Positions 1,566 to 39,798 of a stretch of 64,000 nt of DNA are shown one piece after another. The DNA is from Lobosporangium transversale. Lineage: Eukaryota. The notes beneath the pieces are model-generated. The model did no database searches. It was not told the origin of the DNA and saw only the letters and a list, made by a program, of their open reading frames with translations. Made by a program: the position numbers and the translations under genes. Position 1 is the stretch's first letter; the number at the start of each line of letters is the position of its first letter. The stretch is taken from the NCBI RefSeq assembly GCF_002105155.1, contig NW_019028995.1, positions 372,001 to 436,000 on the forward strand, in the 5' to 3' direction.

Positions 1566-1598
<33 letters not shown>

Positions 1599-2429
1599 AT
1601 AACAAGGACCCTCAGGGTCATGGGATTTATTTTCTACACTCTATGAACAAAATGCTCCAGAAACTATAGTCAATAAACAGCTATTACTGCACAAACGACA
1701 AGAGCCGCTGTATCCATGATTTCATAAACCCTGACCGCCGTGGTTGGTACTCAAAGTCCACCTTTCCGACGTGGCCTGTTGCGCAACGCGACAAATTATC
1801 CGCTATCCATAGTCATCAAAAACTTCATTCCACCTAGCCGCTCCATCACGTCCAGTTTGGTTTTCCCAAGGTAACTGTCCCGGACTCGGTCATCCGCGAT
1901 CTTGTAGATCTCTTTTACATTCAGCTTCTGTCTTTGTCTGAGGGAAGGGACAAGGAAATCATTGCTACTACGTCTGTGCTCCCCAACACAGTTGCGTCCT
2001 CTAGCGCGTTTGCTCATAGCAGTGATTCCACGAGCCTTTTCCCATTCAACGGTGACTTTACACCGTTTGTTCCAGATTTCTGTACGACCGAATTCCTCTA
2101 TGGCCTTGACGAAGCGCCCTGCCATATATGTAGCTATCCTTGTTGTTGTCTTGAAGCCAACTTTCCAACTCTGAGCAATGGACTTGGGCGTAAGTCAATG
2201 GTAAATGTCCTGCACAGACCAATCTGGTGTGTGCTCTCTCTCTTCCTCATCACCGTCGTTCCTATCACCATGGCGTCGTACTTCTCGCACACCATCGATA
2301 TGCATCTCCAGAGTTTTCCAAATGTAGTCCTCCTCTGCCGCAGTAAAAGTTGGCTCTTTTGTCCTTGGTGGGTCTACACCTCTCTCTGGCCCTTTGTGCT
2401 TGCTCCTGCACTGCTTTCAACGCTTTCCT

Positions 2430-7454: not shown

Positions 7455-9204
7455 TATGGACTAGTGGTTTTGGCGGCAATCCACTTGAGGTTGATTTCTC
7501 TTCTTTTCTACTTTTTTCCTTACTACCTGCTCCGTTTGCTATGAGAGCCATAATCCCTGCTAGGGACTCGTTAGTAGGAGGCATGCCTGGAAAAGCAGCT
7601 GACTTACCTTTGTTTTTGGGCACGTTCCTGTGGAACTCTCCACTCAGTCCTGCTGCCTTCAGGTGCTCGGCTGCGAAGTCCATTCCAAGATGTTGGCTCA
7701 TCATTCCTATTAACATTTGGATTAGTAGACTGTTTTGAGCACGTAGTTGTTGTTGCTCTTCCTGTAGGCGTTCCACTGTATCTACCAGTTGCTGGATTTT
7801 CTTATCGACTGCACCAGTGTTGCTGTTCTTTCCTATGACGTTTGTTTGACCAGAACTTTGGATATTGGTTTTTTCTTCCTGTGCCTTCTGTTGGTTGCTT
7901 TGAGTAACACTTCCACTCTTTCCCGTGGCGGCTTTGGCGTATGAGAGTTGTGGTACAACTTTCAGTGCTCCTCCCTTTTGGTATTCCTTGACAGCTTTGA
8001 TGTGCTGCTTTGTCTCCTGGAGTGCAATGAATACCTCGCATTCCCTCATGATGTGTCCTGGTTTGTGGCATTGTCGGCATCGTTTGTCGTCCTTATCACC
8101 CCAGAAAGTCTCAATGCCCCCGATTTTGACTGGTTTAGTCATAGTTTCCGCCATTGCTTCTGCAGAGGGGAAATACACGAATGCTTCTCGTTGATATTGC
8201 CATTTCTTCCCGTCTTTTGAAAAATAGCGTGGCACTTTGACGAAATTCGCTTGCTTTTCTCCAAGGAGAGGCTCCAAGTCCTTGTCTGTCGTTCCAAAAG
8301 GGAGACCTGAGATTTTTGCGACGTGTGTCAATGTCCACTCGACTCGTTCATTGCCGATTTTGCGGATGCGCGCGAGTTCTTTTCCAATGAAGACGTGCTC
8401 CCGGTTGGCCAATTTGAATTTTGTGACGTCCTCAACATTGTTATAAACTACTGCTGCGGTGATCTTGACTCCCTTGGAGCATGGGCGGGTTGCAATCTTT
8501 TCAATAGTACCGAACTGCAGCATTGCTGACTTGATAAGGAATTCCGGAGTCCTAGGAGCAATACCATAAACCTCCACTGTGCGTTCCAGTTCACGTTCAC
8601 GGGTGTCGGTATTCATTTCAAAAAACAATGGGACTTCGTGTTCATTTCCGTCTTCATCTTTGTGTGTAGCAGTCATTTCCAGGAGCGCTGTCAGGGATGG
8701 TTGATCCTCAACAGCAACACGGAAAGCAGTATATCCATTGACTTTGACCTTGTGTGGTCCTTCTGTGCAATAGATGGCAGCATCCAACAAGACTGTTTCC
8801 AGGTCTTTCTTTTTTTCGGCAACCGTTGTTCCATAAAGGTCCTCGAGGAAGACGCCGGCCGCCTTCAGCCTATCCTTGGTGCGTCTCACTTCCTGCCATT
8901 CTGTGACTCCCACAGTGGCCATTGCGTCATCGTCTTCGTCCATTGCGTCCTGTTCTTGTGTAGCTGCACGCAAGCCATTTGCACCCAGGCTGCGGTTATA
9001 CGAGGGACGGCTCTTAGAGCCCGTTCCCTCGTCAACGCGGCTCCCGCTCGCCTCTATGCCGCTTGCGGGACCGACTTCTTGGTTGTTGGGCTGTCTTTGA
9101 GATCCGATTCCGCTATTTGGAATGCGAGCTCTTTTCGAATGAGGGACATTTCTGTCCAAATTGGGTGGATCATGTTGCTGATTTTTTCCTAATGCAGGTT
9201 CCAT
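7447..9204 (-). CDS. LINE ORF1 (gag-like, RRM-like segments, CCHC zinc knuckle, coiled coil)
   Basis: CRQCHKPGHIMREC knuckle; RRM-like TVEVYGI and AKISGLP; first ATG at 9204 (GTG at 9225); overlaps the ORF2 start by 8 nt. Confidence 0.9.
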   Translation of the reverse strand: MEPALGKNQQHDPPNLDRNVPHSKRARIPNSGIGSQRQPNNQEVGPASGIEASGSRVDEGTGSKSRPSYNRSLGANGLRAATQEQDAMDEDDDAMATVGVTEWQEVRRTKDRLKAAGVFLEDLYGTTVAEKKKDLETVLLDAAIYCTEGPHKVKVNGYTAFRVAVEDQPSLTALLEMTATHKDEDGNEHEVPLFFEMNTDTRERELERTVEVYGIAPRTPEFLIKSAMLQFGTIEKIATRPCSKGVKITAAVVYNNVEDVTKFKLANREHVFIGKELARIRKIGNERVEWTLTHVAKISGLPFGTTDKDLEPLLGEKQANFVKVPRYFSKDGKKWQYQREAFVYFPSAEAMAETMTKPVKIGGIETFWGDKDDKRCRQCHKPGHIMRECEVFIALQETKQHIKAVKEYQKGGALKVVPQLSYAKAATGKSGSVTQSNQQKAQEEKTNIQSSGQTNVIGKNSNTGAVDKKIQQLVDTVERLQEEQQQLRAQNSLLIQMLIGMMSQHLGMDFAAEHLKAAGLSGEFHRNVPKNKGKSAAFPGMPPTNESLAGIMALIANGAGSKEKSRKEEKSTSSGLPPKPLVHNE

Positions 9205-10572: not shown

Positions 10573-10920
10573 CCAGAATATTTATCTTATCAAAGTCGTA
10601 CGTAGCCCAGAATATTTATCTTATCAAAGTCGTACGTAGCCCAGAATATTTATCTTATCAAAGTCGTACGTAGCCCAGAATATTTATCTTATCAAAGTCG
10701 TACGTAGCCCAGAATATTTATCTTATCAAAGTCGTACGTAGCCCAGAATATTTATCTTATCAAAGTCGTACGTAGCCCAGAATATTTATCTTATCAAAGT
10801 CGTACGTAGCCCAGAATATTTATCTTATCAAAGTCGTACGTAGCCCAGAATATTTATCTTATCAAAGTCGTACGTAGCCCAGAATATTTATCTTATCAAA
10901 GTCGTACGTAGCCCAGAATA
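10573..10920. repeat. Perfect 34-bp minisatellite, about 10.2 copies
   Basis: Unit CCAGAATATTTATCTTATCAAAGTCGTACGTAGC repeated head-to-tail with no spacers. Confidence 0.97.
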
Positions 10921-17944: not shown

Positions 17945-20141
17945 TCATATAATGGATGAAGACGCCTCGCTACGAGTAGGGATGAAAATATTCAAGGGCA
18001 CCTTGGAGTCACTGGCGTTGTTACTCTCTCTCAGATCTAGCACCCTTTTCGAGGACATTTGAGACGGCACTTGTTTCATGGCCAATGATTTAACCTGGGG
18101 CTGAGATAACTCCTTGGGGCTGATCTTGGCGACATCGGCATAGGTCTTGTCAAGGTCTATGGGATATTCATCCAATAGCTTATTCACGAAGATGTCAATG
18201 TTTCCCAGCACCTCTTCATCCATCTCCGGAAAGTTTTCCAGGTGGTTATCATCTCTGTACAGCGACAGATACGAACTTGTGCCATATCCTTCCATCGAGA
18301 CTAGAGATAGGTCTCCACCAAAATATCGAGCGATCAATCGTGATAGAGGCAGACCATGCCCAGATCGACTCAGAGGAAGGTTCAAGTAGCCTTTGGTCTC
18401 ATCGGCCAATCCGCTCGCGAGTGCGTTAGAATTTGGATCTGTAAGCAACATACCTACTCCCTGTTCATTCCCAAGTCGTTCATTTTCAGCCTTTGGTGTG
18501 ACTGAAGTGGCAAAGTGCATATAGCTCCAGATCTTGTCTAATTGTGACAAGGCTATCCCGCCGCCTTGATCTGTGATCTTGATTGTCACATCCTCACTAC
18601 CGTCAACTAGTGCCAGTGTGATGGGCGGTAGTTTTGAGCTAGTACCAAGACTTGATAGCTTAGACATTCCAAGCGAAATTGGGTTCCCATCCTTGCTCAA
18701 ATGTGTCTCACAAGTTGCTCTCATGGCATTCTTGAGAAGCTCAAAGATGGTTCGATGGAGAAAATCATCCACATAAGTCATGGTGATGTCTGGGTTAAAC
18801 GTCTGGATCAAGACGGATGGCGCCGGTTGTCCATAGTGTACGGAACAAACACGTTGAGCATCCTTGATAGCACGCTGTGAGGTCGAGAGCAGATTCACAC
18901 GCTGCGCTAAGTTTAACTCGTGATCGCGGAGCGCAAGTTGCTCACCTTCGTAAATGAAAAGGAGCCAGTTAATTTACAGTCATGATGTCACATAGGAACT
19001 TGGAATTTTGAATCAGACCCTACAAAAAATAAACAATAAACATATCCTTACCAATTAAAAGTTGAGTACTAAGGTTGATGGAATAAAATCTATCGAAATA
19101 GGCCTGGATATCCCTGTCCATTTGTGGATCAATGAGCAACCTTTTATTATCAGTAGTTGATTGCAGACTAGCTTTAGTCGAGGTAGCGTCATCTCGATAA
19201 TCTGTGAACTGAGCTTGGAGAGACTTCGTAAACTCTTTGAAACCCTGACTGAGAGCCAACATCTTGATTTTGTGTCGATGGCCTAGGTCTCGGAGCAACA
19301 TTGTAAACTCTTTCTCTAGCTGAGGGCTTGATGGCTTCGGCATCTGGACCAAAAGGCTAATAATATCATTTGTGGGTATGTCACCGATGAATTCATATAG
19401 TTCATCAGCAAGTAAAACAGGAGGTGTAAAAGTATGTTAGAGCGGTTTTAGTAAAGCTTAAAGGACTGAACGTGGAAAACTGGATCAGTTACTCCTAATA
19501 GTAATAAAAGATGGTCATTCGGCTGGTATTCCTTGTCCTACTGCTCTGTTGTATGAGATCATCTTTTTTTTCTTCCACTCTGCAGTATCTTTCCCTTCCC
19601 GATCCAATTCTTTTTCTAAAAATTAAGGCAAACAAGTGCATAAAATACATTGAAGGAACAAACCTAATGTCTTCCAAGTAGGACCTGGCGATGTTCTGAA
19701 AGGTCGGCATCTCTGACATATTAGTCCCCAGCAGTTTTGAGTTCAACATGCTGAGGGCATGCGACAGACGGATAGGGAGTTCTCGATGTAAGAACACTGC
19801 AGGGATGACCAACGCGTCTTGATTATTTGACGCGAGGACATGTCTAATGAACAGAACAAGTCATATGAGTATTTGCTTCAAGACAAAAAGTCAGAACAGT
19901 GAGATTCTTTCTTTGTCTTTTTACTTCCTCTCATTACCGTCCAAGTGTGTATATTTGTTTGAGCTTATATCAAACAAAAAAAAAAAAAAAAAAAAAAAAA
20001 GATTGAACAAAATAGATTCGTTAGAAACTAAATGCGTAGGGATATTGTTATACTCAAGGAAGAAGCCCTTACAGACAATCGAGTCGCTTTGAAGCGACAC
20101 AGTTTAATGATAAGAGCAGCCTGAGTTTTATTCATAGGCAT
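17945..20141 (-). CDS. Mitochondrial alpha-ketoacid dehydrogenase kinase (PDK/BCKDK family), multi-exon
   Basis: FLHRELPIRLSH, FELLKNAMRAT (N box), IKITDQGGGI (G1), GLPLSRLIARYFGGDLSLVSMEGYGT; first exon boundaries approximate. Confidence 0.85.
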
Positions 20142-20697
20142 TAAGTTTTTTTTTTTTTTTTTGGATTGTTATAGAAGAGAGAAAGAGAGAGTGTGTGTAA
20201 ATGTAAGTCTGTGTTGTGTCCGTCTAAAGTAGGGCTAAGGAGTGATAAACGCGAATACCATTCGGTGGCGAAGGGTTGGAGGACGAATAAGAGAGAGAGG
20301 AAAAGATAATCATGAACATTGCACGAGAGACAAAGGATTGAGCCAAGCTAGGTTGGAAGAAAAAGAAAAAGGCGATAAAGAGAAGATGCGAAATTTCGGC
20401 CGAAGTAACGAAGCGCCAAATGTAAGCAAGAGAAGATTGAAGTGACTGAGACAGCGGAAGCGAAGGCTACGGAAGAAAGAAAGAAAAATGAATAAAATGT
20501 TTCCAGCCGAATAGAAGGAACCGGAACCAGTGAGACATCTGTGGGGTATCAGGCAACTCTTTACTCTTTTTCAACCAACAGTTAATCAGATTAAGCGTTT
20601 ATAATGATTATACGCGAGTGCGCAGATTTATATATTACAAAAGCGAAGGGGGAAAGTATATACTATTAAAGGAATAATATGGAGACGGTGATTGATT

Positions 20698-21516
20698 TTA
20701 GAAGAGGAATGCAGAAACACCGACTGCAGTTGCCAGGACCAACGTCTTGACAAAAGAGTTAGCGACTATACCGGCATCGCTGTTGAAGCCTTTGCCATGG
20801 TCAGAGTGATCACTGGTGGAAGTGGGTTTAGAAGGTACTGTAGTGGTTCCAGTGCCGTTGCCAGGGTTGGGTGCAACATACTTGAGGTCGCAGAAAGGTG
20901 CAAACTTGGTATTGGAGCACATAGTATTGTAAGAAGGGCACTGCTTCATGTCAGGCATATCGAGGCACAATCCCTTCCATGCCTTAACTTCGTCACAATT
21001 GCTGTAGCCGGATGCTTCAGGCGTGGGGCAAATCTTACAATCGGTCATCATGGGCATCTCCTGACAGATAGAATAAACAGTTCCAGTCACGGTCTTACCA
21101 GAAGGAAGACCGGGGAATGCAGGCTGACCTTTACATGCAGGAATGAGAGAGTTGGCGGCACAAAATATAGAGTAGCTCTTTGAGCAAACAGTACCAGTGA
21201 GAACTGCATCCTCCGTTGGGATGCAGAGCGAGGCCAAGATAGTCATTGGTGCACAATAGGTGGTACTCAGCTTAGAATCAGCTGTGCAGGCAGCGTTGAG
21301 TGAGCATCCAGGCAAGAACGAGTTGATAGCACAGATCTCCTTGATAGCATCCGTAATGGTTGCATTTGGTACAACAAATGTTGAACATACGGCATCAGTG
21401 GGAGTAGCCAAGCAGCCAGAAGGAGCAGTGGCTGGGGGATCGTGAGGATGACCATCATGAGCAGTAGCGGAGGCGACGAAGACTGAGGCAACGGCGAAGA
21501 GCAAAGAGGAGCGCAT
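20698..21516 (-). CDS. Secreted, probably GPI-anchored Cys/Met-rich protein, paralog of the neighbouring Ctr ectodomain
   Basis: Signal peptide ending SATA, mature N-terminus HDGHPH, LPGCSL, ICQEMPMMTDC and LCLDMPDMKQC motifs, Ser/Thr linker, hydrophobic C-terminus. Confidence 0.85.
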   Translation of the reverse strand: MRSSLLFAVASVFVASATAHDGHPHDPPATAPSGCLATPTDAVCSTFVVPNATITDAIKEICAINSFLPGCSLNAACTADSKLSTTYCAPMTILASLCIPTEDAVLTGTVCSKSYSIFCAANSLIPACKGQPAFPGLPSGKTVTGTVYSICQEMPMMTDCKICPTPEASGYSNCDEVKAWKGLCLDMPDMKQCPSYNTMCSNTKFAPFCDLKYVAPNPGNGTGTTTVPSKPTSTSDHSDHGKGFNSDAGIVANSFVKTLVLATAVGVSAFLF

Positions 21517-21645
21517 CTTTCACTTGTTTCGTTTGTTTTGGGTTATGGTTGGTGAGTTGTTGTTAGATCTTGTGCAAAAGAAAGGAAGAGATGAATGAAA
21601 ATAGAGAAAAATGCTGAAGTGGTCATGGAATGGAGGAGGACGACA

Positions 21646-22280
21646 CTTTTATACCGAAATCCTTGGTTTAATATTTGCTCTCAAGATGACAGACATAGAT
21701 GAATGTCAAGGGGTGTTTAATATCTTGATGGATTTGACAGGTGGTGTGGGCTTCTGTTAAAAGTCGCAAAAATGCTCTCATTCTTGGTGTGATAATTTGC
21801 TTTTATTGAATTGGAGTGAGTATATACAACATATGAAAAAAAAAAATGACAGTTGAATGTTTGACATACCGAAGAGGTACTCGTTTTCCTGGGTCCTCAA
21901 TTTTCCTGATGTTCCATTTTGACAAACATCAGCCTGTTTATTTTTGTGGACGCACTCTTTTTGACAGGTGAAACCGGCATGCATCCATCTCTCAGTTGTT
22001 CAACTGTCATTATTTTGACATTTTCTTCTTCTTCCTTTATTCCCCCCTTTCTTTTTTCCTTCACTGCGTTATTCCTGTCTCTTTATTTACATATATTATA
22101 TAATACTCTTTCTATTCCCCCTAGATTTCCCTGTCTTTTTCTATTTTCTTCTTTAATAGTTGTAGTTATTCCTGTTGTTCTCATTGCTTATTCATCTGTA
22201 CATCTCTTTCGTGGCGTTTTTGACATTCAAGATCATTCCACTTTTTTTTTTTTTTTTTTTTTTTTTTTGGCGGTATAAAA
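21646..22280. promoter_or_regulatory. Bidirectional promoter with clustered TTTGACA motifs
   Basis: TATAAAA on the minus strand near 21647-21653 and on the plus strand near 22274; TTTGACA at 21733, 21860, 21918, 21960, 22014 and 22219; TGTCAA at 21704; TTTGCTC at 21674. Confidence 0.65.
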
Positions 22281-22357
22281 CCAAGTCCTTTTCGAATTCT
22301 CTTTGAACCCAAATTCTTGTTCATTTAATTCACTCCCTTTAAAAAGAATAGTAAGGA

Positions 22358-23575
22358 ATGAAAGCCTTATCATTCCTTAGAACCAGCCCCCACTTGGCGT
22401 TGTTGTTTCTTCTTGGAACACTCTCTATTACCCATCATGTCCAGGCACAGAGTGTCGATTGTCTAATTACACCTTCCGATCCTTCTTGCGCTTCCTTTGA
22501 GCTGCCGGAGGCGACAATCAAAGCTGATCTAGATGGCCTCTGCACCCAAATGCCATACATGCCTGGTTGCTCGCTCTATAAATCATGTCAGGCTGCTTCC
22601 AAGGCTGATCAGTGGTGCACACCTTTCTCAGTATTGGCAGACATCTGTGCCTTGGATATGCCTAACATGCGCGACTGTAAGAATTATGTTGCTCTCTGTG
22701 GCGCTGCCGTGAATCAGACCTTGGCCGCTCGGCCTGCTATCTGCAAGAAGGCCCCCATGATCTCGGCGTTCCCGACCACCAAGAATGCCTCAGCTCTCGT
22801 CATTGACATTTGCACAGAGATGGATATGGCCGGTTGTGAGCGATGCCCCAAACCCAAGCCCGATACCTATGCGGCTGATTGTGATACCCTCGGTACTTAT
22901 GCGATCCTGTGCAAGGCCATGCCAGACATGCACCAGTGTGCTGCTTGGAAATCCATGTGTTCCTCTTCTTCTGATACTGCCTCAGTTCTCAACTTCCAGG
23001 ATTCCGAATACTGCGCTGCTGGTGTCGGTAGTCCTGATATGAACCCGCCTGCCATGCGTATGTACTTCCATTTAGGCTTCTCGGATTATGTCTTATTTGA
23101 GAAGTGGGTTCCTCGAAATCAGAGCCAGTACATTGGTACTTGGTTTGCACTCTTCTTCCTCACACTTTTTTTCCAGACTGTTCAGACCTACCATAACTGC
23201 CTCGAGGCCCAATGGGCGGAGGAGTATATAGCCGAAAGTGAAGAAGTTTCAAAGTCGGATTCTTCCATTCCTTTGGCTTCTAGCAAAGGCTCGCGTTCCA
23301 ATCCAATCCTCCTCCAATGGATGCATATCTGGCGCCAACCTTGGACGCTGAAGGAGGCAAAGCAAAACATGTTCCGTGCTGTGCTGACTTTTATCGAAAC
23401 TACACTTGGATATGCACTCATGCTAGTTACTATGACCTTTAATGTGCCTTTGTTCTTTGCCGTCATTCTCAGCCTAACCGTTGGCTCAGTAGTCTTTTCA
23501 AGGCAACGTTCAGTAGTTATGATCAAATCCAACGCCAATGCTGCCAGTGGAACTGGTTGTGCTGGCTGCGGTTAA
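22358..23575 (+). CDS. Ctr-family copper transporter with signal peptide and large Cys/Met-rich extracellular domain
   Basis: MRMYFH...VLFEKW before TM1, YALMLVTMTFN (MxxxM) in TM2, a third TM segment, C-terminal CxxC; ectodomain with C..MPxMxxC repeats. Confidence 0.93.
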   Translation: MKALSFLRTSPHLALLFLLGTLSITHHVQAQSVDCLITPSDPSCASFELPEATIKADLDGLCTQMPYMPGCSLYKSCQAASKADQWCTPFSVLADICALDMPNMRDCKNYVALCGAAVNQTLAARPAICKKAPMISAFPTTKNASALVIDICTEMDMAGCERCPKPKPDTYAADCDTLGTYAILCKAMPDMHQCAAWKSMCSSSSDTASVLNFQDSEYCAAGVGSPDMNPPAMRMYFHLGFSDYVLFEKWVPRNQSQYIGTWFALFFLTLFFQTVQTYHNCLEAQWAEEYIAESEEVSKSDSSIPLASSKGSRSNPILLQWMHIWRQPWTLKEAKQNMFRAVLTFIETTLGYALMLVTMTFNVPLFFAVILSLTVGSVVFSRQRSVVMIKSNANAASGTGCAGCG

Positions 23576-25560
23576 AAGCACATCTTACTTTCTTCGTAAG
23601 CTCCACTATAATCCGAATGTAAATAAATGTCATATTCAATATCAAAATAAAAATAAAGTGCATGTCTTACCTTTCTATATTATGACCTCTGAGTCGGATA
23701 AAACCACCTATTACGCTTTGATTCATACTGTCGGACAAATCAAATACATGTATGCATGCGTCTTATTTTCCAATATGAAGAACGTGAGGGTAGTCCAGAC
23801 TGCCGTACATTTACCACTATCCGTTACCTTGGCGTAGTTCTGGATTGCATGCTAATAGGACATTTACAATAATATACAGTGCATATCAAAATTAGCAAAA
23901 ATTTTACCTTCTTTATTTCCTCCGCTTTTACTGCATGTTCAGAGCGAACTGGATTGGAATAAAGGACTAAACGAACAAAGCTTCATTAAAAAATAAATAA
24001 CGTTCGTAACCGGCCACCACAGTCCCCTGACATGAATTCCATTGAACACATGTGTTGAACTCAAGAGAAGGCTTGGAAAGTATTTTTTCTTTTTTTTTAC
24101 AGCCTTTGACAACAATGACAAAACTGTAAAATATGAATGTATTCGCCAAAATTAACGTAGATGACTCCTTTCTTCTAGCACTAGATACTAAAATGGATCA
24201 ATCATTGATGAAATAAGACACGTGTATAATGAATATATTTGTGTATATCCATCGTATCCATAGTGAACTGACTTATTTTATTTCTTTACAAGGCCATCTC
24301 GCATTTTGTCTTTACTGTTTGAGAAGATATCACGAAGATATCACACGGCCATTGATTAAAACACCCTCTAGATTTTATTAGGGATATATGCAATTGAATA
24401 GTGTCGTTCATCCTATCACGTATGTATATATATATCATGGCATGTTTCCTTCTATCTGTTGTAAGGATTTCCCTGTTTAGCTCTGATAATTCTATTAACT
24501 TTTTAGATAGATGGCCCATTAAACCAAGGGAGATCTGATTAAGCCAGAGAGCAATCTATAAAGAATGTTAAAGTACAATGTCAAGGAAGTCAAATACCTA
24601 TCCCGAGTCAGTAAGCATGTTCGTGTACATGCACATAAAAATATTATACATGTACTTGTACTTGTATGGCGGAAGAATCTTCCAGACAACACAATAGGTT
24701 AATTTTTGACTTACTTTTGACAAACTTTAAAAGAATATTCATGTACCTGTCAAAACGCTGACTCGGGACCGACCGCCCATCAGTACCTTAACCCATACAT
24801 GTACAGGCTTTTTGTGATGTTTTTCTTTTTTCTACTTTCCTTTTGATGAAATGACATCCTTAATGGTAAACCCCGCATCGATTAAAATTTCTTTTTACTG
24901 TATGGTCAGCTGTGTGAAGGAGATCTATTGGTGTTATTGTTCAAGTTATTGATCTGTCTCTTATGGACGTATCGATATGAATTCACTAACGACAGTTATA
25001 AGAGTTGCTCGAACAACAAAATAAAGTATAGGGCCAATTTTGGCAGACAGGGGTAGAGGAAGGAGGAGGACTTTCAGGTACTACCATGGCCGTGTCAATA
25101 GTTTATATTTGTCAAGTTGATAAAGAGAGTTGACAGACTGAGTAAATGTATTATTTAAGGTTTGACAAAGAGACAAATCCTTGTCTCCTTTGAGGTACAC
25201 AATTTTGACGTTGACACAAACAAACAACGTGCCTTCTATTTGTTTTCCGTTGCCCTATACATTCAAAAACAAATACATGTAGCACTTTAGAAACTCTTGT
25301 TGTAGAGCTTGAGCCAATCCAGAAGCAACAAGGCCACTAATATATTTTTCCCAAGGTTATCAGCACTAGATAAGGAATGAAGATGCAAGAATTAGTTACT
25401 ATCGCAAAAAGCATCATCGTCAATAGATTCAGTATAAAATGGTCCCTCTCCCGCTTTCTCTTTCTTTACTGTCGTGCCACATTTTGCTACCACTTCCTCA
25501 GTCATATATCCGTCTTCTATATCTCTTTACTGTAATACATCACATCAGTTTTTTTCAACC

Positions 25561-26205
25561 ATGAAGTTCGTTGCTGTCGCCTCTGCTGCCATCTCAACTA
25601 TCCTCTTCGCCACCCCGTTGGCCGAAGCCCATGTTACTGCCAACCCCTCAGCTGCTGTCTCAGGGTCCTACTTTCAGACTAGTTTTCGTGTCCCTCATGG
25701 TTGTGATGGTAATGCTACAAACCTGGTCATTGTCGAAATCCCCAAGGGTGTTTCCTCAGTTAAGCCCCGCCCTCTCTATCCTTGGAATACTACCATTTCC
25801 ATGGTACCTCTCGATACCCCCATCACCACACCTACGGGCACCATCAATACCACCGTTGGTTCTATTACCTGGTCCAATGGTCTAATCCAAGATAACATGT
25901 ACGAAGATTTCGGATTGCAGTTCAAGTTACCAACTCAGGAAGGCCCTCTCTACTGGAAGGTCTACCAGCATTGCGTCAATAACGAATGGAACAACTGGAC
26001 CAGCGTCCCTGACGCCAACGGAAAGACTGATGGTTTCCCTGCAGCCGTTATTACTCTTTCCAATTCCACAACTACCACTGGCCCTGGAGGTGCTTCCCCT
26101 TCCGCTAGCAGCAAGCCTAGTGCTGCTGTCGCCGCCTTCCAGAGCTTGAACTTCGGCCGCGTCGCTCTTATCAGCTCTGGTGCCTTCTTGGTCGCTCTTA
26201 TTTAA
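25561..26205 (+). CDS. YcnI/DUF1775-family copper-binding protein, secreted with a GPI-like tail
   Basis: Signal peptide ending AEA, mature N-terminus HVT, FRVPHGCDG, IPKGV..VKP...W, ITWSNG, WKVYQHC, NW; Ser/Thr linker and hydrophobic C-terminus; TATAAAA near 25433. Confidence 0.85.
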   Translation: MKFVAVASAAISTILFATPLAEAHVTANPSAAVSGSYFQTSFRVPHGCDGNATNLVIVEIPKGVSSVKPRPLYPWNTTISMVPLDTPITTPTGTINTTVGSITWSNGLIQDNMYEDFGLQFKLPTQEGPLYWKVYQHCVNNEWNNWTSVPDANGKTDGFPAAVITLSNSTTTTGPGGASPSASSKPSAAVAAFQSLNFGRVALISSGAFLVALI

Positions 26206-31404: not shown

Positions 31405-33850
31405 ATGGAACCTGCATTAGGAAAAAATCAGCAACATGATCCACCCAATTTGGACAGAAATGTCCCTCATTCGAAAAGAGCTCGCATTCCAAATAGCGGA
31501 ATCGGATTGGCTGAGTAGTATACTCGTCAGGGCACCCCCCTGTCTAGCCCAGGGGCCGGGTTCGAGTCCTGGTTAAGGCACATAAAGTGAAGCAAACATG
31601 TGCCAGGTCAGGGATTTGCTTGAGTTTTTATACTTTCTCTCCGAGACAGCCTAGTGTTCTCCGCTAAGGCTAAGATCGTGGGTGCACTACCCTAAGTCGC
31701 CTGGCTGGCCACATGTCTTAGGTATATATTCCACCCCCCAGCCGAACCAGCGGTACATCTGGCAGCACATCCCCCCATCCACCCACTTGACTAGGACAGC
31801 GATGATCACAAAGTTTGACGGAGTCCAAAATAGAAATTTCAGACCAATTCCGCAAGATTTGGGTCCACATGCCAGTGGATTTGATCTAATAGAAAAAATT
31901 AAAAAAGTCGTCCTTAGCTAGAGTCGGCACGCCAGCCTCCGCAGCTTTTCACGGGCGCAACAGGCCACATCGGAAGGATGGACTTCGAGTACCGATCACG
32001 GTGTACATTGGTAGAGAAAAACATGGATACGAATTGGCTCTTCACAGCCATCCCGTGCGAACTTTGAGAGTTTCGCTTGTTTCATAGTTGAGGGCGATAT
32101 CATTACTTTAGAGCGAGATTATGAAATAAAATTCCTCACCTCTGTGGGTTCTTGTTAACAGGAAAAAAAAAAAAATCCAAATAGCGGAATCGGATCTCAA
32201 AGACAGCCCAACAACCAAGAAGTCGGTCCCGCAAGCGGCATAGAGGCGAGCGGGAGCCGCGTTGACGAGGGAACGGGCTCTAAGAGCCGTCCCTCGTATA
32301 ACCGCAGCCTGGGTGCAAATGGCTTGCGTGCAGCTACACAAGAACAGGACGCAATGGACGAAGACGATGACGCAATGGCCACTGTGGGAGTCACAGAATG
32401 GCAGGAAGTGAGACGCACCAAGGATAGGCTGAAGGCGGCCGGCGTCTTCCTCGAGGACCTTTATGGAACAACGGTTGCCGAAAAAAAGAAAGACCTGGAA
32501 ACAGTCTTGTTGGATGCTGCCATCTATTGCACAGAAGGACCACACAAGGTCAAAGTCAATGGATATACTGCTTTCCGTGTTGCTGTTGAGGATCAACCAT
32601 CCCTGACAGCGCTCCTGGAAATGACTGCTACACACAAAGATGAAGACGGAAATGAACACGAAGTCCCATTGTTTTTTGAAATGAATACCGACACCCGTGA
32701 ACGTGAACTGGAACGCACAGTGGAGGTTTATGGTATTGCTCCTAGGACTCCGGAATTCCTTATCAAGTCAGCAATGCTGCAGTTCGGTACTATTGAAAAG
32801 ATTGCAACCCGCCCATGCTCCAAGGGAGTCAAGATCACCGCAGCAGTAGTTTATAACAATGTTGAGGACGTCACAAAATTCAAATTGGCCAACCGGGAGC
32901 ACGTCTTCATTGGAAAAGAACTCGCGCGCATCCGCAAAATCGGCAATGAACGAGTCGAGTGGACATTGACACACGTCGCAAAAATCTCAGGTCTCCCTTT
33001 TGGAACGACAGACAAGGACTTGGAGCCTCTCCTTGGAGAAAAGCAAGCGAATTTCGTCAAAGTGCCACGCTATTTTTCAAAAGACGGGAAGAAATGGCAA
33101 TATCAACGAGAAGCATTCGTGTATTTCCCCTCTGCAGAAGCAATGGCGGAAACTATGACTAAACCAGTCAAAATCGGGGGCATTGAGACTTTCTGGGGTG
33201 ATAAGGACGACAAACGATGCCGACAATGCCACAAACCAGGACACATCATGAGGGAATGCGAGGTATTCATTGCACTCCAGGAGACAAAGCAGCACATCAA
33301 AGCTGTCAAGGAATACCAAAAGGGAGGAGCACTGAAAGTTGTACCACAACTCTCATACGCCAAAGCCGCCACGGGAAAGAGTGGAAGTGTTACTCAAAGC
33401 AACCAACAGAAGGCACAGGAAGAAAAAACCAATATCCAAAGTTCTGGTCAAACAAACGTCATAGGAAAGAACAGCAACACTGGTGCAGTCGATAAGAAAA
33501 TCCAGCAACTGGTAGATACAGTGGAACGCCTACAGGAAGAGCAACAACAACTACGTGCTCAAAACAGTCTACTAATCCAAATGTTAATAGGAATGATGAG
33601 CCAACATCTTGGAATGGACTTCGCAGCCGAGCACCTGAAGGCAGCAGGACTGAGTGGAGAGTTCCACAGGAACGTGCCCAAAAACAAAGGTAAGTCAGCT
33701 GCTTTTCCAGGCATGCCTCCTACTAACGAGTCCCTAGCAGGGATTATGGCTCTCATAGCAAACGGAGCAGGTAGTAAGGAAAAAAGTAGAAAAGAAGAGA
33801 AATCAACCTCAAGTGGATTGCCGCCAAAACCACTAGTCCATAATGAGTAA
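31405..33850 (+). pseudogene. LINE ORF1 of copy 2, split by a SINE insertion
   Basis: MEPALGKNQ start at 31405; the frame resumes after 32195 and matches copy 1 ORF1. Confidence 0.9.
31508..32175 (+). mobile_element. tRNA-headed SINE / non-autonomous LINE partner (about 670 bp)
   Basis: A and B boxes at the 5' end, LINE-like 3' UTR, poly(A), perfect 20-bp TSD TCCAAATAGCGGAATCGGAT at 31488-31507 and 32176-32195. Confidence 0.93.
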
Positions 33851-36800
33851 TGCAAGCACTCAAAATAGACAGGACAGTACTAGATCTAATAGCAATGCTA
33901 TTAAATTTGGATCATTTAACATACGGGGTGCGTTAGAAGCTGGGAAAATAGAAGCGTTATGTGAATATGGTGATATGAAAGATTTAGATATGATAGCACT
34001 CCAAGAAACCAACATGCATGTTGGAGGGAGTAAAATGGCAAGAAATTTGAAACAAACTAAATATAAAATGTGGTGGGTGAGTGGTAAAGAAGGTGCAACA
34101 CAGGGAACAGGGGTTGGGCTTTTGATCGCTCAGCATTGGTTCCAGTACGCTGCGAGAACTTCATCTTGTGGGAGCAGAGGCCAAGCGAGAGATTTCAACT
34201 TTCCTGGGGGATTTAAAATCAGAGTAATTAACTGCTACCTACCAAGCGGAAGGGAAGATGAAGCAGAAGTAATTACTAAATGGATACAAAAAGAATATAA
34301 CGACGCGAGAGAAGAAGGGAGGGGTATAATCATTCTTGGGGATTTCAATGCTACTAGGAACCCCCGGCTCGATCGACGACGAGAGAACGCAACGAGTATA
34401 AGACCAGAATCGGCACTACTTCAATGGATGGAGACGCAGCCACTTCATGATGTTTTCCGCGCTCAACACCCTCTTCGTGAAGACTATACCTGCCAGAATA
34501 CGAGCCGTATAGACATGATCTTTGTATCTAGTGTATTCACGGATAGGCTTCTCAGGGTCAAACACAAATCATTGGATGGTATTGTGGCGTCAGACCACAA
34601 AATGGTCACTCTAGAAATGACACTGCACCGCCTTATTCAACAACCACTTCATCACATCATTTACAAAAAACCCAAGGGCTACAAATTCTTACTTCGCGAT
34701 GCCAGCAACGACGATTGGGAGAATTTTGAGAACGGTGTGAATATAAGAATTGGAGACGGCAGTGAATCTTCTACAATGGGCCTACGGAGAGCCCAGAACG
34801 ACGATGAAAAGGATCTCTTGACGCCAGAAGACCTTCAAAGAATCGACATTGACCTTGCATGGAAATGGTATTCAAAGCTGCTCATAGAAAGCGCCAAAGA
34901 AAACTTGCCAGGAAGAGTGGTTGGTCGGTCTGGAGTGAAGCCAGAACAAGAATTGTGTCTCCGCCACCTCATACGTGATCTCGCTAAAATTAAAAAATTG
35001 GCAAATCAAACCCGCAGAGGATTATCAACAGTACAAAGAGACGCAAGATGGACAACACTGGTAGAGCAGCAGAAAAAATTTAATAAGAATGCTGAGTGGT
35101 TGAGGCTGCAAGGACAAGGGGAGATCGAAGGCCTCACTACTATACCGGACACGAAGGATAGCGACGATGTATGGAAAGATTGGGTAAGAGGAGTAAAGCA
35201 CAGATGGACAGAGTCAATATCATTTTTACAGGCGACAAGGAAGCTGGAAAAGACAAGGACGATGAATGGCCTGATAGAGAAACGCTGTGGAGAGTTGAAG
35301 TCGGCAACAGGGAAAATGATAGACAAAGTGCTGGGACGTGGCGGAGGTAAAGTGACAATAGACCGGATTCAGGACGACGAAGGCGGTGTCACAGTGAATA
35401 TTCTAGAGCCACAGCAAGTTAAAGAGAAGGTACGGGCATGGTTCGACAAGTGGCACGGACGTAGGCCGTCAAAACCGCTAGAGCCGGGTTCGAGATGGCA
35501 GAAGCAATATAGCCCTCAGAGGTGGATCAAGAGTGAATGGTACGACGGTCTGATGGATCCACCAAGCAGAAATGAGTTTTCAGCTGTGGTCCTGGATGCA
35601 CCCAAAAACAAGGCAGCTGGTGTGTCAGGCATTACGAACGAAATGATCCAACACCAAGGACCGCAGGGGCTCTTTATCCTCTTCCAAATCATAAGTGCCA
35701 CTATCGTGCAAGAAGACGTCCCCAAGGATTGGAAGACGGGGCTCCTCTATTGCATACCAAAAGCTCCAGAATGGTCAGGAAACATGGCAGAGGTAAGGCC
35801 GATAGCTTTGTTGGAGCACGCACGGAAAATAATGTTTGCAGTAATAACAAATAGGTTAAGCGCGATCATGGCCAGGCACGATATTCTACGAGGACCAAAC
35901 TTCTCTGTTCTTAAAGGTACTACCACTAAGGATCCAATCCATATCCTGCAAGCGGCAATGGAAGACGCAAGAGAGTTCAAGAAAGAACAGTGGATTGTGT
36001 TCCAAGACATGAAACGGTGTTTCGACTCTGTCAACTGCGCCCCCGATGGGATGCTTTCTCGCGGACTAAGACGGCTCCAGGTCCCTGAACAGTTCATACG
36101 CCTATGTGAAAACATCGCCATTTCCAAAGTGAACAGGGTGATTACTGAATACGGACCAACTGACGAGTATCATCCAGAGTGCGGTTTGGATCAAGGTGGA
36201 GTGGAATGTCCGCTTTTATGGAGAATAGCATATGATGCACTCCTGTGTGAAATTATAGACAGTAGCACTGGATATAGTCTAGAGGGACCAAGAGGGACAC
36301 CATCAGTTGCTGGCCTTGCTTTCGTGGATGATACTACATGGATATCGGACTCCAAAGCACATATGCAGGAGATACTTGACATTGCAACGACATTCTTCAT
36401 TCTTAACGGGGTGGAAGTGAACGCCAAGAAAACGCAGGTCATCTGTATCAACAGCAAGCAGGATAGGAGGAGCACGCTGAAATTTGGGACACCTACAGAA
36501 GAGATCCGACCAGTGGAAAAGAATGAATCGGTACGGATTCTTGGTGTTTGGGTCACAGCAACAGGAAATCCAACAGCAACACAGCAAATAGTGGAGCAGG
36601 AAATAGAAACGACCTGTAACATTCTCCGGTCCAAAGCCCTGACAGATCGGCAGACAACGTATATTGTCAATAATGTGCTCATCCCAAAGGTGCTGTATAG
36701 GATTTCGGCCCAAATGTTGCCACCAACGTTCCTACAGAAGATGACTGGTAAGTATATGTCACTGTGTAAGCGGAAAGCACGTATGCCATCAACTACGCCA

Positions 36801-38867
36801 AACAGCATTATGAACCACAATAGATTGTATGCCATCAAAGACTTGGCGAACGCTCAAGCGGAAGAACAAATATCTACCCTGGCGCTTCGACTTAATGACA
36901 GCAATGTAATGGGACGGATATGTCGGACACGAGTACTGATGCTGCAGCACAGGAATAAGATGGAAGTCTCGCCAACTTTGGAGCCACATCGTGTCAAAAA
37001 GTATCGCCACAACTTTATATCGAATGTTTGTGAAGAAATGAAGAATCGTAACATTACTTTCGACCTATCGATCGCAGCCGAATTTGGTCTCCCACACAAC
37101 GCTCTCTCGACATGGAAATGGCTAAACGGAGAATTACCACACGTATGGAAGGCGCTCACCAAGCGTATGGTATACTTTGTGGATCAAATACTTACGGATG
37201 ATAAGGAGGACATGATCTCATGGCACGCATTCAGGACCCGTTACGGAGGGCCTAAAGTTTCGCCATTCTGGTTCAACCAACTTCAAAACTTTTGCTTCGA
37301 CAACGATTATGTGGGTAGGCATGCAAGAGAATGGAACAGGAGGAAACTGGCACTTTTAGACGTCAGTGATGATGACAGCAACAGCGACAGTAGTTATGTC
37401 AGCTCGGTAGACGGGGATACAGAAGACGAAGATCGAGAAGCGATTCGTGCACTCAACCAATTCATAAAGCATGAGGCAGCGAACAGAACCTTGACAGTAT
37501 CACCGGCTAATCAAGCTGTTGAGCCACCAATTGGAATTAAGTGGATTCTAGATCAACAGAAGGAGCGGAAAAAGAGACGAGAAGCTGTTATGAAAGAGGC
37601 GCGCAGAGCAACCAGAGAACATAATCTTAGGCGACAAAGAGCAAAGTTAGATGCCATAGTCAGAAGAGCAGAACGCCACCAGGACCGAGAGCGAAGGCAT
37701 GGTGAACGCATGCGAGCCCGCGAAGAAGCGAGGAGACGCCGGACCCAGAACACAAGGAGATATGAGGGTCTGAGCGAGCAAGCTCTGCTAAGGAGAGCAA
37801 AAGTCGACCTGGATTCCAACGAGACACCGTGCCTAAAAGTGATCCCTGAAGTCAACAGAGGCCTAGCCAGGGACACAAATGGAGTTATCATTAGTGCCAA
37901 TACCGAGGAGAAAATCCAACGCCAAAGGGAACGGTACAATACCCAGCCGGGTAATGTCATTTATACGGATGGATCTCTCAAAGATATTGGCACTGAAAGA
38001 GTAAGTATGGCATTTGGTGTGGTAGTCCAGACACAAGAGGGTGAGTTTTACACTGCGCTATCTGGTAGAGTAGCAGGCAACGCATCCTCGACAAAGGCAG
38101 AGCTAGCTGGTTTGTTGGCAGGAATACTTATCAGCCCACGAAACAGACCTATGACAATCCGACTTGATAACAGCGCAGTTGTGACTCAATTCCGAGCATT
38201 GGTCCGAGGCAGAGTGGATAGCACGTTGCGACAACGTATTAGATCACCGTATGCAGTATGGTGGGCAGCTATACACAACGCATTTATTCAACAAGGATCG
38301 GAAGTCACGGTCGAGTGGGTCAAAGGACATGCCGGCAACAGAGGGAACGAAGAAGCGGACGAAGCAGCAAAACATGGACATTATGGCGAGCTATGGGATA
38401 TCAACATAACGGAGCATAATGACATGTACTGCCATGCAAAGTTCAACGGTGTACCAGCGGAAGATGACTTAAGGCAGATCCTTAAGTTACAGTCAACAAC
38501 TCGTACACATCACACGTGGATCGCTCAGAACAGGACGCAGGAGCATGTTAAGGATTGGACAAAAATTGATTGGCGAGCTACTATGAACATTGTTCATGAT
38601 AGCAACCTACCGAAAGGACTCTTCACCAGCCCAGCGGACTGCCAAAAGCGAGCGCACAGGATCAAGAAACTCCATGGAATGTTGCCTACACAGTCATATA
38701 TGAGACACTGGAGGCCAGACTTTTATGAAGACGGCAACTGCAGAGTGTGTGGGACAGAGGATGAAGACACATCGCACATCTGGAGATGTCCAAGGACGAT
38801 GGGGACTCAGGCCGAGAAGTGGAAGGAGATAATCCAAAATGTGAATGTGATAGGGGAGAGGACATGA
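33843..38867 (+). CDS. LINE ORF2 of copy 2 (APE-RT-RNase H-CCHC)
   Basis: Translation matches 2430..7454, with the same premature TGA. Confidence 0.95.
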   Translation: MSNASTQNRQDSTRSNSNAIKFGSFNIRGALEAGKIEALCEYGDMKDLDMIALQETNMHVGGSKMARNLKQTKYKMWWVSGKEGATQGTGVGLLIAQHWFQYAARTSSCGSRGQARDFNFPGGFKIRVINCYLPSGREDEAEVITKWIQKEYNDAREEGRGIIILGDFNATRNPRLDRRRENATSIRPESALLQWMETQPLHDVFRAQHPLREDYTCQNTSRIDMIFVSSVFTDRLLRVKHKSLDGIVASDHKMVTLEMTLHRLIQQPLHHIIYKKPKGYKFLLRDASNDDWENFENGVNIRIGDGSESSTMGLRRAQNDDEKDLLTPEDLQRIDIDLAWKWYSKLLIESAKENLPGRVVGRSGVKPEQELCLRHLIRDLAKIKKLANQTRRGLSTVQRDARWTTLVEQQKKFNKNAEWLRLQGQGEIEGLTTIPDTKDSDDVWKDWVRGVKHRWTESISFLQATRKLEKTRTMNGLIEKRCGELKSATGKMIDKVLGRGGGKVTIDRIQDDEGGVTVNILEPQQVKEKVRAWFDKWHGRRPSKPLEPGSRWQKQYSPQRWIKSEWYDGLMDPPSRNEFSAVVLDAPKNKAAGVSGITNEMIQHQGPQGLFILFQIISATIVQEDVPKDWKTGLLYCIPKAPEWSGNMAEVRPIALLEHARKIMFAVITNRLSAIMARHDILRGPNFSVLKGTTTKDPIHILQAAMEDAREFKKEQWIVFQDMKRCFDSVNCAPDGMLSRGLRRLQVPEQFIRLCENIAISKVNRVITEYGPTDEYHPECGLDQGGVECPLLWRIAYDALLCEIIDSSTGYSLEGPRGTPSVAGLAFVDDTTWISDSKAHMQEILDIATTFFILNGVEVNAKKTQVICINSKQDRRSTLKFGTPTEEIRPVEKNESVRILGVWVTATGNPTATQQIVEQEIETTCNILRSKALTDRQTTYIVNNVLIPKVLYRISAQMLPPTFLQKMTGKYMSLCKRKARMPSTTPNSIMNHNRLYAIKDLANAQAEEQISTLALRLNDSNVMGRICRTRVLMLQHRNKMEVSPTLEPHRVKKYRHNFISNVCEEMKNRNITFDLSIAAEFGLPHNALSTWKWLNGELPHVWKALTKRMVYFVDQILTDDKEDMISWHAFRTRYGGPKVSPFWFNQLQNFCFDNDYVGRHAREWNRRKLALLDVSDDDSNSDSSYVSSVDGDTEDEDREAIRALNQFIKHEAANRTLTVSPANQAVEPPIGIKWILDQQKERKKRREAVMKEARRATREHNLRRQRAKLDAIVRRAERHQDRERRHGERMRAREEARRRRTQNTRRYEGLSEQALLRRAKVDLDSNETPCLKVIPEVNRGLARDTNGVIISANTEEKIQRQRERYNTQPGNVIYTDGSLKDIGTERVSMAFGVVVQTQEGEFYTALSGRVAGNASSTKAELAGLLAGILISPRNRPMTIRLDNSAVVTQFRALVRGRVDSTLRQRIRSPYAVWWAAIHNAFIQQGSEVTVEWVKGHAGNRGNEEADEAAKHGHYGELWDINITEHNDMYCHAKFNGVPAEDDLRQILKLQSTTRTHHTWIAQNRTQEHVKDWTKIDWRATMNIVHDSNLPKGLFTSPADCQKRAHRIKKLHGMLPTQSYMRHWRPDFYEDGNCRVCGTEDEDTSHIWRCPRTMGTQAEKWKEIIQNVNVIGERT

Positions 38868-39715
38868 AGGAAAGCGTTGAAAGCAGTGCAGGAGCAAGCA
38901 CAAAGGGCCAGAGAGAGGTGTAGACCCACCAAGGACAAAAGAGCCAACTTTTACTGCGGCAGAGGAGGACTACATTTGGAAAACTCTGGAGATGCATATC
39001 GATGGTGTGCGAGAAGTACGACGCCATGGTGATAGGAACGACGGTGATGAGGAAGAGAGAGAGCACACACCAGATTGGTCTGTGCAGGACATTTACCATT
39101 GACTTACGCCCAAGTCCATTGCTCAGAGTTGGAAAGTTGGCTTCAAGACAACAACAAGGATAGCTACATATATGGCAGGGCGCTTCGTCAAGGCCATAGA
39201 GGAATTCGGTCGTACAGAAATCTGGAACAAACGGTGTAAAGTCACCGTTGAATGGGAAAAGGCTCGTGGAATCACTGCTATGAGCAAACGCGCTAGAGGA
39301 CGCAACTGTGTTGGGGAGCACAGACGTAGTAGCAATGATTTCCTTGTCCCTTCCCTCAGACAAAGACAGAAGCTGAATGTAAAAGAGATCTACAAGATCG
39401 CGGATGACCGAGTCCGGGACAGTTACCTTGGGAAAACCAAACTGGACGTGATGGAGCGGCTAGGTGGAATGAAGTTTTTGATGACTATGGATAGCGGATA
39501 ATTTGTCGCGTTGCGCAACAGGCCACGTCGGAAAGGTGGACTTTGAGTACCAACCACGGCGGTCAGGGTTTATGAAATCATGGATACAGCGGCTCTTGTC
39601 GTTTGTGCAGTAATAGCTGTTTATTGACTATAGTTTCTGGAGCATTTTGTTCATAGAGTGTAGAAAATAAATCCCATGACCCTGAGGGTCCTTGTTATCA
39701 AAAAAAAAAAAAAAA

Positions 39716-39798
39716 GTATACTCGTCAGGGCACATATATACTCGTCAGGGCACCCCCCTGTCTAGCCCAGGGGCCGGGTTCGAGTCCTGGTTAAGGCA
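39716..39798 (+). mobile_element. tRNA-like head of the outer SINE (target of LINE A copy 2)
   Basis: GTATACTCGTCAGGGCAC-ATA-TATACTCGTCAGGGCACCCCCC...GGTTCGAGTCCTGGTTAAGGCA; its 5' stub lies at 31271-31291. Confidence 0.8.

Follow-up and report, generated by a model that had tools for sequence, protein, structure and literature searches.

Introduction

How Ctr importers obtain extracellular copper, and what stand-alone proteins made of the CTRA domain do, are open questions in the literature. In Chlamydomonas, CTR1 and CTR2 import copper, while CTR3, which is secreted and consists of CTRA only, is induced when copper is deficient; CTRA-only proteins have arisen more than once, and both forms are reported from early-diverging fungi (10.1101/2023.10.19.563170). 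The YcnI protein of Bacillus subtilis has a site formed by His27, Glu50 and Trp137; about 60% of YcnI members keep all three ligands, and most others, mainly proteobacterial, keep only the His and the Trp (PMC8424229). YcnI exchanges Cu(II) with the CopC domain of the importer by contact and needs its membrane anchor, and its loss lowers yield under copper limitation (PMC12362106). In Cryptococcus, Cbi1/Bim1, a protein with a glycosylphosphatidylinositol (GPI) anchor, holds copper in a His brace and is an interaction partner of Ctr1 (PMC9258870, PMC10952591). According to these sources, no advantage of having CTR3 is known, it is unclear what Bim1 does, and YcnI members with His and Trp only are uncharacterised. 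Here we describe three neighbouring genes in a 64,000-nt stretch of the Lobosporangium transversale genome (contig NW_019028995.1, positions 372,001 to 436,000; hereafter the window, with coordinates counted from its first base). They encode a stand-alone CTRA protein, a CTRA-CTR copper transporter and a DUF1775/YcnI protein, and they form a conserved cluster in Mortierellaceae. The trio very probably constitutes a copper module; we also favour, with noticeably less assurance, a reading of the data in which the two helper proteins would retain copper on the cell surface and supply it to the Ctr importer.

Results

The stand-alone CTRA gene (20698..21516, minus strand; 272 aa, P0001) and the Ctr gene (22358..23575, plus strand; 405 aa, P0002) are transcribed divergently from a common promoter region (21517..22357), and the DUF1775/YcnI gene (25561..26205, plus strand; 214 aa, P0003) lies beyond the Ctr-YcnI intergenic region (23576..25560). 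Each gene is an uninterrupted open reading frame (ORF). Conservation of this arrangement was assessed from consecutive gene identifiers, tallied by hand in the 26 Mortierellaceae assemblies in which all three genes were visible. Assemblies with two identifiers were left out; in them the genes are mostly adjacent and a few are apart. Results showed that the three genes carry consecutive identifiers in 19 of the 26 assemblies (EDD11, two of Gamsiella, BGX27, BGX28, BGZ76, BGZ58, BGZ83, BGW42, EC991, BGW39, BG003, BG005, BGZ93, BGZ81, BGZ82, CPC16, BGZ59 and KFH72682-4), which cover the genera Mortierella, Gamsiella, Entomortierella, Dissophora, Gryganskiella, Linnemannia, Podila and Actinomortierella. 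As a rule the genes run YcnI, Ctr, CTRA; in Actinomortierella wolfii they run YcnI, CTRA, Ctr (BGW42_008080/81/82). Support at the DNA level comes from two metagenome loci, L001 and L002, both of which stop short of the YcnI gene; L001 confirms the divergent CTRA-Ctr pair and also contains the kinase-like gene that flanks the cluster in the window. Synteny across Mortierellaceae, which the original prediction had proposed as its own test, is thus observed, and the three genes are a conserved cluster of this family.

The intergenic DNA of the cluster is rich in one heptamer. TTTGACA is the top 7-mer of the two intergenic regions, with 10 occurrences in 2.8 kb versus 8 in the other 58.5 kb of the window; the window's other non-coding gaps (25,134 bp) contain 4. 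Six sites are located in the divergent region (21733, 21860, 21918, 21960, 22014 and 22219) and four in the Ctr-YcnI region (24105, 24716, 24748-24754 on the minus strand, and 25161). When compared with 1000 dinucleotide shuffles, the motif having been picked in the window itself, the six sites of the divergent region faced a mean of 0.39 and no shuffle reached 6, and the four sites of the Ctr-YcnI region faced 0.62, with 4 of the 1000 shuffles reaching 4. In L001 the counts were 4 (0.10 in shuffles) and 5 (0.34), and in L002 7 (0.41), values that none of the 1000 shuffles attained. The two metagenome loci taken alone again gave TTTGACA as top 7-mer (16 seen, 0.84 expected), several sites match in position between the window and L001, and four control stretches contained none. 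This enrichment of both intergenic regions, in the window and in two relatives, suggests that a single regulator is involved, and TTTGACA may be considered a candidate copper element. The Mac1-type element of yeast, TTTGC[TG]C[AG], showed no enrichment, with 7 copies in the whole window and 1 in 20001-22000.

The Ctr-YcnI region also contains an inverted pair, CCCGAGTCA (24602-24610) and TGACTCGGG (24759-24767), which is found in L001 (about 6235-6362) and L002 (about 2306-2528) as well, that is, in three species whose surrounding DNA is unalignable. The pair has an internal AA(T/C)CTTCCA and its TGAC core is common with TTTGACA. Although it folds well (z -4.9), the arms show no compensatory changes in the three species, so an RNA stem is not favoured over paired protein-binding sites. 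The same region gives rise to a spliced RNA piece (23920..25555, plus strand, with a GT..AG intron at 24420-24506), seen in contigs of run X1, a single public run that is probably RNA and consists of contigs only, which precludes any ranking of expression. This RNA runs over TTTGACA sites, ends 6 bases before the YcnI start codon and contains 33 upstream ATGs, the longest frame having 52 codons; it could be non-coding, or a long leader, perhaps a repressive one. In two assemblies of Linnemannia elongata a single gene model separates the Ctr and YcnI identifiers.

The assignment of P0002 to the Ctr family was confirmed by a match to PF04145 over residues 235-380 (E=2.5e-29; 103 bits, cut-off 25.3), and the protein weakly matches the CTR1 structure 6M97. 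A signal peptide is followed by an ectodomain with four Cys-Met motifs (62, 97, 152 and 185), an MRM at 233 and a CxxC at the C-terminus. The MxxxM motif corresponds to MLVTM 355-359 in the second transmembrane segment (window 23420-23434) and is present in all 29 Mortierellaceae-type Ctr rows, 28 of which also have the terminal CxxC. In the third transmembrane segment P0002 has SxxxG at 372, where the other 28 of the 29 rows have GxxxG. Relatives that span the full length were found in chytrids, Basidiobolus, Conidiobolus and dictyostelids, including a 531-aa Ctr of Dictyostelium citrinum (42% identity, E=1e-106), and all eight Met positions of the P0002 CTRA domain are common to CTRA-CTR relatives. 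By these features, and in a comparison that covered dictyostelid, chytrid, Basidiobolus and Conidiobolus sequences, P0002 is classified as a member of the CTRA-CTR subfamily, and it would import Cu(I) via the Ctr pore.

The stand-alone protein P0001 matched no Pfam family and is related to the P0002 ectodomain (34% over 197 aa, E=7e-28). It consists of a CTRA domain without the Ctr membrane domain and is predicted to be secreted, given a signal peptide (1-19). The mature protein starts at His20 (H-x-G-..H) and comprises an 18-Cys domain at 34-210, predicted as all-helical, and a Ser/Thr/Pro linker with DHSDH (236), followed by an uncharged hydrophobic C-terminus that would act as a GPI signal. 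Of the four Cys-Met motifs only the last two (151, 184) are present; the four Met of the first two are gone and their Cys are kept, which suggests that the Cys form structural disulfides and the Met are ligands. His20 is found in 23 of 24 aligned stand-alone CTRA rows, usually as H-x-G followed by further His, the DHSxH motif in most rows, and the hydrophobic tail in 29 of 30, the exception being a mis-spliced model. Close orthologues, where named, are all from Mortierellaceae, and tailed stand-alone forms are likewise seen in Quaeritorhiza, Polychytrium, Hyaloraphidium, Calcarisporiella and Conidiobolus; several of these have also lost half of the Met. A tree of 67 rows places the Mortierellaceae stand-alone proteins as a clade with chytrid and early-fungal stand-alone forms (Shimodaira-Hasegawa-like approximate likelihood ratio test, SH-aLRT, 87), apart from the neighbouring Ctr ectodomain, while a topology that unites the two is not rejected by an approximately unbiased (AU) test (p=0.44). 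The original prediction had called P0001 a stand-alone copy of the transporter ectodomain: the homology holds, and the two missing Met motifs, the His start and the tree grouping speak against a copy. As judged from tree and Met pattern, and with the AU result in mind, a recent copy of the neighbour's ectodomain is disfavoured.

A fold search of the CTRA model against 48,161 chains gave nothing at Z of at least 5 (best Z 2.6), no PDB sequence matched P0001, and an Atlas search with the 272-aa protein produced only leads under 0.9. Judging from the model, there is no solved CTRA relative in sight, which does not show that the fold is new. Among 93 relatives scanned for domains (from 150 listed plus three from other searches), CTRA was fused to DOMON/cytochrome domains in three (P0145, P0181 and P0192; P0145 is CTRA-DOMON-CTRA-Ctr in one chain) and to DUF1775 in none. 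The DOMON fusions suggest that other lineages may possess built-in copper reduction. A further relative, P0200 (401 aa), has a signal peptide, an N-terminal His domain without a Pfam match and then CTRA with a hydrophobic tail. The His domain is one that we take to resemble Bim1/X325, and P0200 is possibly a fusion of a His-brace domain with CTRA.

P0003 matched DUF1775 (PF07987) over residues 24-166 (E=7.5e-35; 121 bits, cut-off 25), as the original prediction had proposed. Its signal peptide (1-23) would expose His24 (window 25630-25632) as mature N-terminus; His46-Gly47-Cys48, Cys138, Trp146 and a Ser/Thr/Gly linker follow, and the uncharged hydrophobic C-terminus is again a predicted GPI signal. 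The structural model (predicted local distance difference test 81) adopts the YcnI beta-sandwich fold, with 3ESM and YcnI 7ME6/7MEK as top Foldseek matches (E 2-4e-9; TM-score 0.80-0.86 by target, 7MEK 0.86). Weak PDB sequence matches to unrelated proteins (E 0.02-0.5) were taken as chance. Aligned with B. subtilis YcnI, His24 falls on His27 and Trp146 on Trp137; both are invariant in 39 aligned rows, so that the His-brace label used previously stands as regards the His, the Trp and the fold and fails as regards the Glu ligand, which is absent; P0003 thereby fits the His+Trp-only group delineated in PMC8424229. Cys48 and Cys138 co-occur in 34 of the 39 rows and are both absent or unpaired in five Glu-type rows. 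By sequence, P0003 is a member of a bacterial His-Gly-Cys subtype, in which His46 may serve as second ligand and Cys48-Cys138 as a disulfide. Within the fungal family, the N-terminal His, HGC, QxC and Trp each occur in 36 of the 38 rows (the five that lack any of these features resemble broken models), and the hydrophobic tail is found in all 38. Bacterial genes of this subtype adjoin CopC, CopD, PCuAC or SCO genes in five of the eight loci inspected (out of 24 such bacterial loci in the tree) and TonB receptor genes in the other three. A second Lobosporangium YcnI model (P0057), on another scaffold (163 kb), is identical at both ends, but the sequence covering the N-terminal His is shifted and the interior contains a gap; it is either a recent duplicate or an assembly artefact.

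A homology search with P0003 returned 53 matches, 38 of Mortierellaceae type and 15 bacterial-looking at 31-44%. In a 71-row tree, the 17 of the 38 fungal rows that were used (L041 and a duplicate locus were left out) form one clade (support 100) on a long stem among bacterial rows of the His-Gly-Cys type, with a sister group that is not resolved (SH-aLRT 83). Atlas look-alikes were 98-100% bacterial and no relatives were found in viral contigs. On this basis, the YcnI gene was likely transferred from bacteria.

With respect to gene structure, the original prediction had described three intronless genes in an intron-rich region. Contigs of X1 showed no splice joint within the three ORFs, three introns in the left-hand gene and five in the right-hand region, the introns of both flanking regions reading CT..AC. 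The description therefore applies to the coding parts; the locus as a whole is not intron-free, because the spliced RNA precedes the YcnI gene. A database model of 225 aa (P0106), identical to the first 78% of P0001, splices off the tail of this protein. The unbroken X1 contig 20203-21556, which covers the CTRA gene, together with a second NCBI record of P0001 with 272 aa, favours the unspliced form. The signal peptides of all three proteins and the GPI-type tails of the CTRA protein and YcnI are predictions from sequence pattern and hydropathy.

The cluster is flanked by a kinase-like HATPase gene and by a gene without family assignment. The intron-containing HATPase_c gene (17945-19965, minus strand), syntenic in L001, presumably resembles mitochondrial dehydrogenase kinases. 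Two copies of a retrotransposon of the long interspersed nuclear element (LINE) type, with endonuclease, reverse transcriptase and RNase H, lie at 1582-9121 (minus strand) and 32176-39715 (plus strand); they are 99.987% identical over 7,540 bp and bracket, in inverted orientation, a 23-kb segment with the cluster. A third RNase H frame (39766-42375) follows the second copy, and a perfect tandem repeat of 34-bp period and about ten copies is found at 10573-10920. Rfam yielded nothing but a poly(T)/poly(A) artefact, located outside the cluster.

Discussion

A role of the trio in copper acquisition, as originally proposed, emerges from this analysis as likely. We envisage that a copper-starvation regulator would bind TTTGACA and switch on all three genes. 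YcnI would bind Cu(II) through its N-terminal His, with His46 in place of the missing Glu and a Cys48-Cys138 disulfide, and the stand-alone CTRA protein would use its His-rich N-terminus for Cu(II) and its Met for Cu(I), its Cys being structural. Copper would be reduced by a reductase or reductant from outside the cluster, and Cu(I) would then travel along Met motifs into the Ctr pore. The YcnI gene would have been bacterial, acquired before the family radiated and fitted with a GPI tail, its product taking the role that Bim1/Cbi1 has in Cryptococcus. In its full form, that is, a captured bacterial copper protein, GPI-anchored within a three-gene TTTGACA regulon, and a Cu(II)-to-Cu(I) relay from a bis-His, disulfide-braced YcnI to CTRA and on to Ctr, this proposal is tentative and doubtful in some of its parts. 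The helper proteins are probably accessory rather than essential.

A number of observations weigh against this proposal. The Mac1 element of yeast differs from TTTGACA. Ctr transports Cu(I), while sites of the YcnI type bind Cu(II), and the cluster contains no reductase. The position of the B. subtilis Glu50 ligand is occupied in P0003 by Gly47, preceded by His46, and in the literature we found no demonstration of copper binding by any YcnI of the His-Gly-Cys type. Loss of ctr3 in Chlamydomonas gave no phenotype (10.1101/2023.10.19.563170), and in B. subtilis the loss of ycnI is reported as mild and transfer in vitro as preferring the direction from the importer domain to YcnI (PMC12362106). 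As for the linkage, six of the 26 assemblies have two genes with consecutive identifiers and a distant third (BGW38, BGZ74, CPB97, BGZ52, BGZ92, and KAI9231730/1 with KAI9230989), mostly on contigs of a few kb; these assemblies are fragmented, though the genes may truly be separate in some of them, and in one (GBAus27b) all three lie on a contig of the same length with identifiers that cannot be compared; part of the linkage may also be inertia, since neighbouring genes such as the kinase in L001 are syntenic too. Regarding origin, YcnI may occur in further eukaryotes, because the search that found none outside Mortierellaceae picked up just 15 distant members of a family that counts >10,000 in bacteria, and DUF1775 is missing from the horizontal transfer table of PMC11291939 (text and two supplements), although Lobosporangium and Mortierella proteins are among its entries.

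Among the alternatives, the one with most weight, though in our opinion unlikely, is a co-regulated copper module whose surface proteins do not feed Ctr and act instead in wall buffering or storage, in damping of uptake or in loading secreted copper enzymes. The Ctr of this locus has a complete ectodomain of its own, the Cu(II)/Cu(I) mismatch fits such functions, Cbi1 is reported to have wall-related roles apart from Ctr1 (PMC9258870), and in the B. subtilis assays described copper moves more readily from the CopC domain of the importer to YcnI (PMC12362106). Against this, the same source reports that loss of ycnI cuts yield at limiting copper, CTR3 is induced by copper deficiency (10.1101/2023.10.19.563170), and the common promoter motif ties both helpers to an importer and not to a detoxification gene.

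That only the Ctr matters, its neighbours being dispensable passengers of general gene-order conservation, seems to us improbable: putative metal ligands are kept family-wide in both helpers, the trio stays together despite the change of order in Actinomortierella, and TTTGACA is confined to the intergenic DNA of the cluster in three species. On the other side, background synteny across genera may account for the linkage, as with the kinase gene in L001, and the absence of a phenotype in the ctr3 mutants described (10.1101/2023.10.19.563170) would suit passengers. We assign a similarly low likelihood to a role other than copper carrier, in which YcnI (of the His-Gly-Cys type) or the CTRA protein (led by His) would handle another metal or take part in redox chemistry, for example by reducing Cu(II) for Ctr. 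The ligand set is unlike that of B. subtilis, members with His and Trp only may differ in function or ligands (PMC8424229), and the three CTRA-DOMON/cytochrome fusions among 93 relatives link CTRA to electron transfer; the cluster itself has no reductase. The genomic context of bacterial His-Gly-Cys YcnI genes, among those for copper chaperones and importers, argues for copper, and transport-linked His-brace variants are described as having no convincing redox activity (PMC10952591). Supply of copper to Ctr by the two helpers thus remains the reading that we favour.

If the full proposal were true, the cluster would be the first eukaryotic YcnI system and an independent answer to the job that Bim1 does in Dikarya. 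A eukaryotic transporter has here probably recruited a metal-binding protein of bacterial origin, and TTTGACA would be a candidate copper-response element for a fungal group where we found none described. A compact trio of intronless genes kept across a family also constitutes a test set for the questions of Ctr supply, CTRA and YcnI.

With regard to novelty, we found no paper on a fungal DUF1775 protein or on this cluster, in a search that covered the subscription literature thinly; the DUF1775 literature found concerns bacteria or reviews His braces, and a term search of PMC12537917 brought up nothing about fungal YcnI, GPI or Ctr. The main text of 10.1101/2023.10.19.563170 mentions no Mortierella, GPI, gene neighbours or DUF1775, and its supplements may list these proteins. 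UniRef already labels single proteins as YcnI-domain and copper transport proteins. The earlier impression that such an arrangement has not been described in fungi therefore appears to hold for the cluster and is too broad for the design, given that a GPI-anchored His-brace helper of Ctr1 is known (PMC9258870).

The closest described systems each share part of the design. The CTRA-CTR family (Chlamydomonas CTR1/CTR2 with soluble CTR3, and Dictyostelium P80) has the same Cys/Met-rich Ctr ectodomain and a stand-alone domain protein (10.1101/2023.10.19.563170). In the trio, the stand-alone CTRA gene is physically linked to Ctr and YcnI, and its product, a single-domain protein with an N-terminal His, retains only half the Met motifs and ends in a predicted GPI tail. 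P0001 is best classed on its sequence as CTR3-like and not as a CTR3 orthologue, because it has a single domain and a hydrophobic tail while there are three CTRA domains in CTR3, which is soluble and periplasmic. The ycnKJI genes of B. subtilis share with the cluster the DUF1775 domain, the N-terminal His, the Trp, a C-terminal membrane anchor and the adjacent importer gene (PMC8424229, PMC12362106). They differ from it in that the importer here is a Ctr unrelated to CopD, there is no CopC domain and no YcnK repressor, the genes are divergent and not in one operon, His-Gly-Cys replaces the Glu ligand and the host is a eukaryote. The trio, originally regarded as the counterpart of the ycn operon, is thus an analogue and not a counterpart by descent. 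Cbi1/Bim1 (X325) of Cryptococcus neoformans resembles the helpers in its GPI anchor (predicted here), its N-terminal His site and its tie to Ctr in a fungus, and is co-regulated with Ctr1, whose supplier it is proposed to be (PMC9258870, PMC10952591). Bim1 is similar to lytic polysaccharide monooxygenases, in contrast to the DUF1775 helper, the second helper and the clustered genes found here; neither helper has a Pfam match to such a Bim1 domain and the P0003 model matches YcnI, so that the helper design works like the Bim1/X325 system without being a member of it. Each component and the helper-plus-Ctr design are already known, which makes the surprise moderate; what appears to be undescribed, and sets this locus apart from the three systems, is the combination, the family-wide clustering, the eukaryotic YcnI and the motif.

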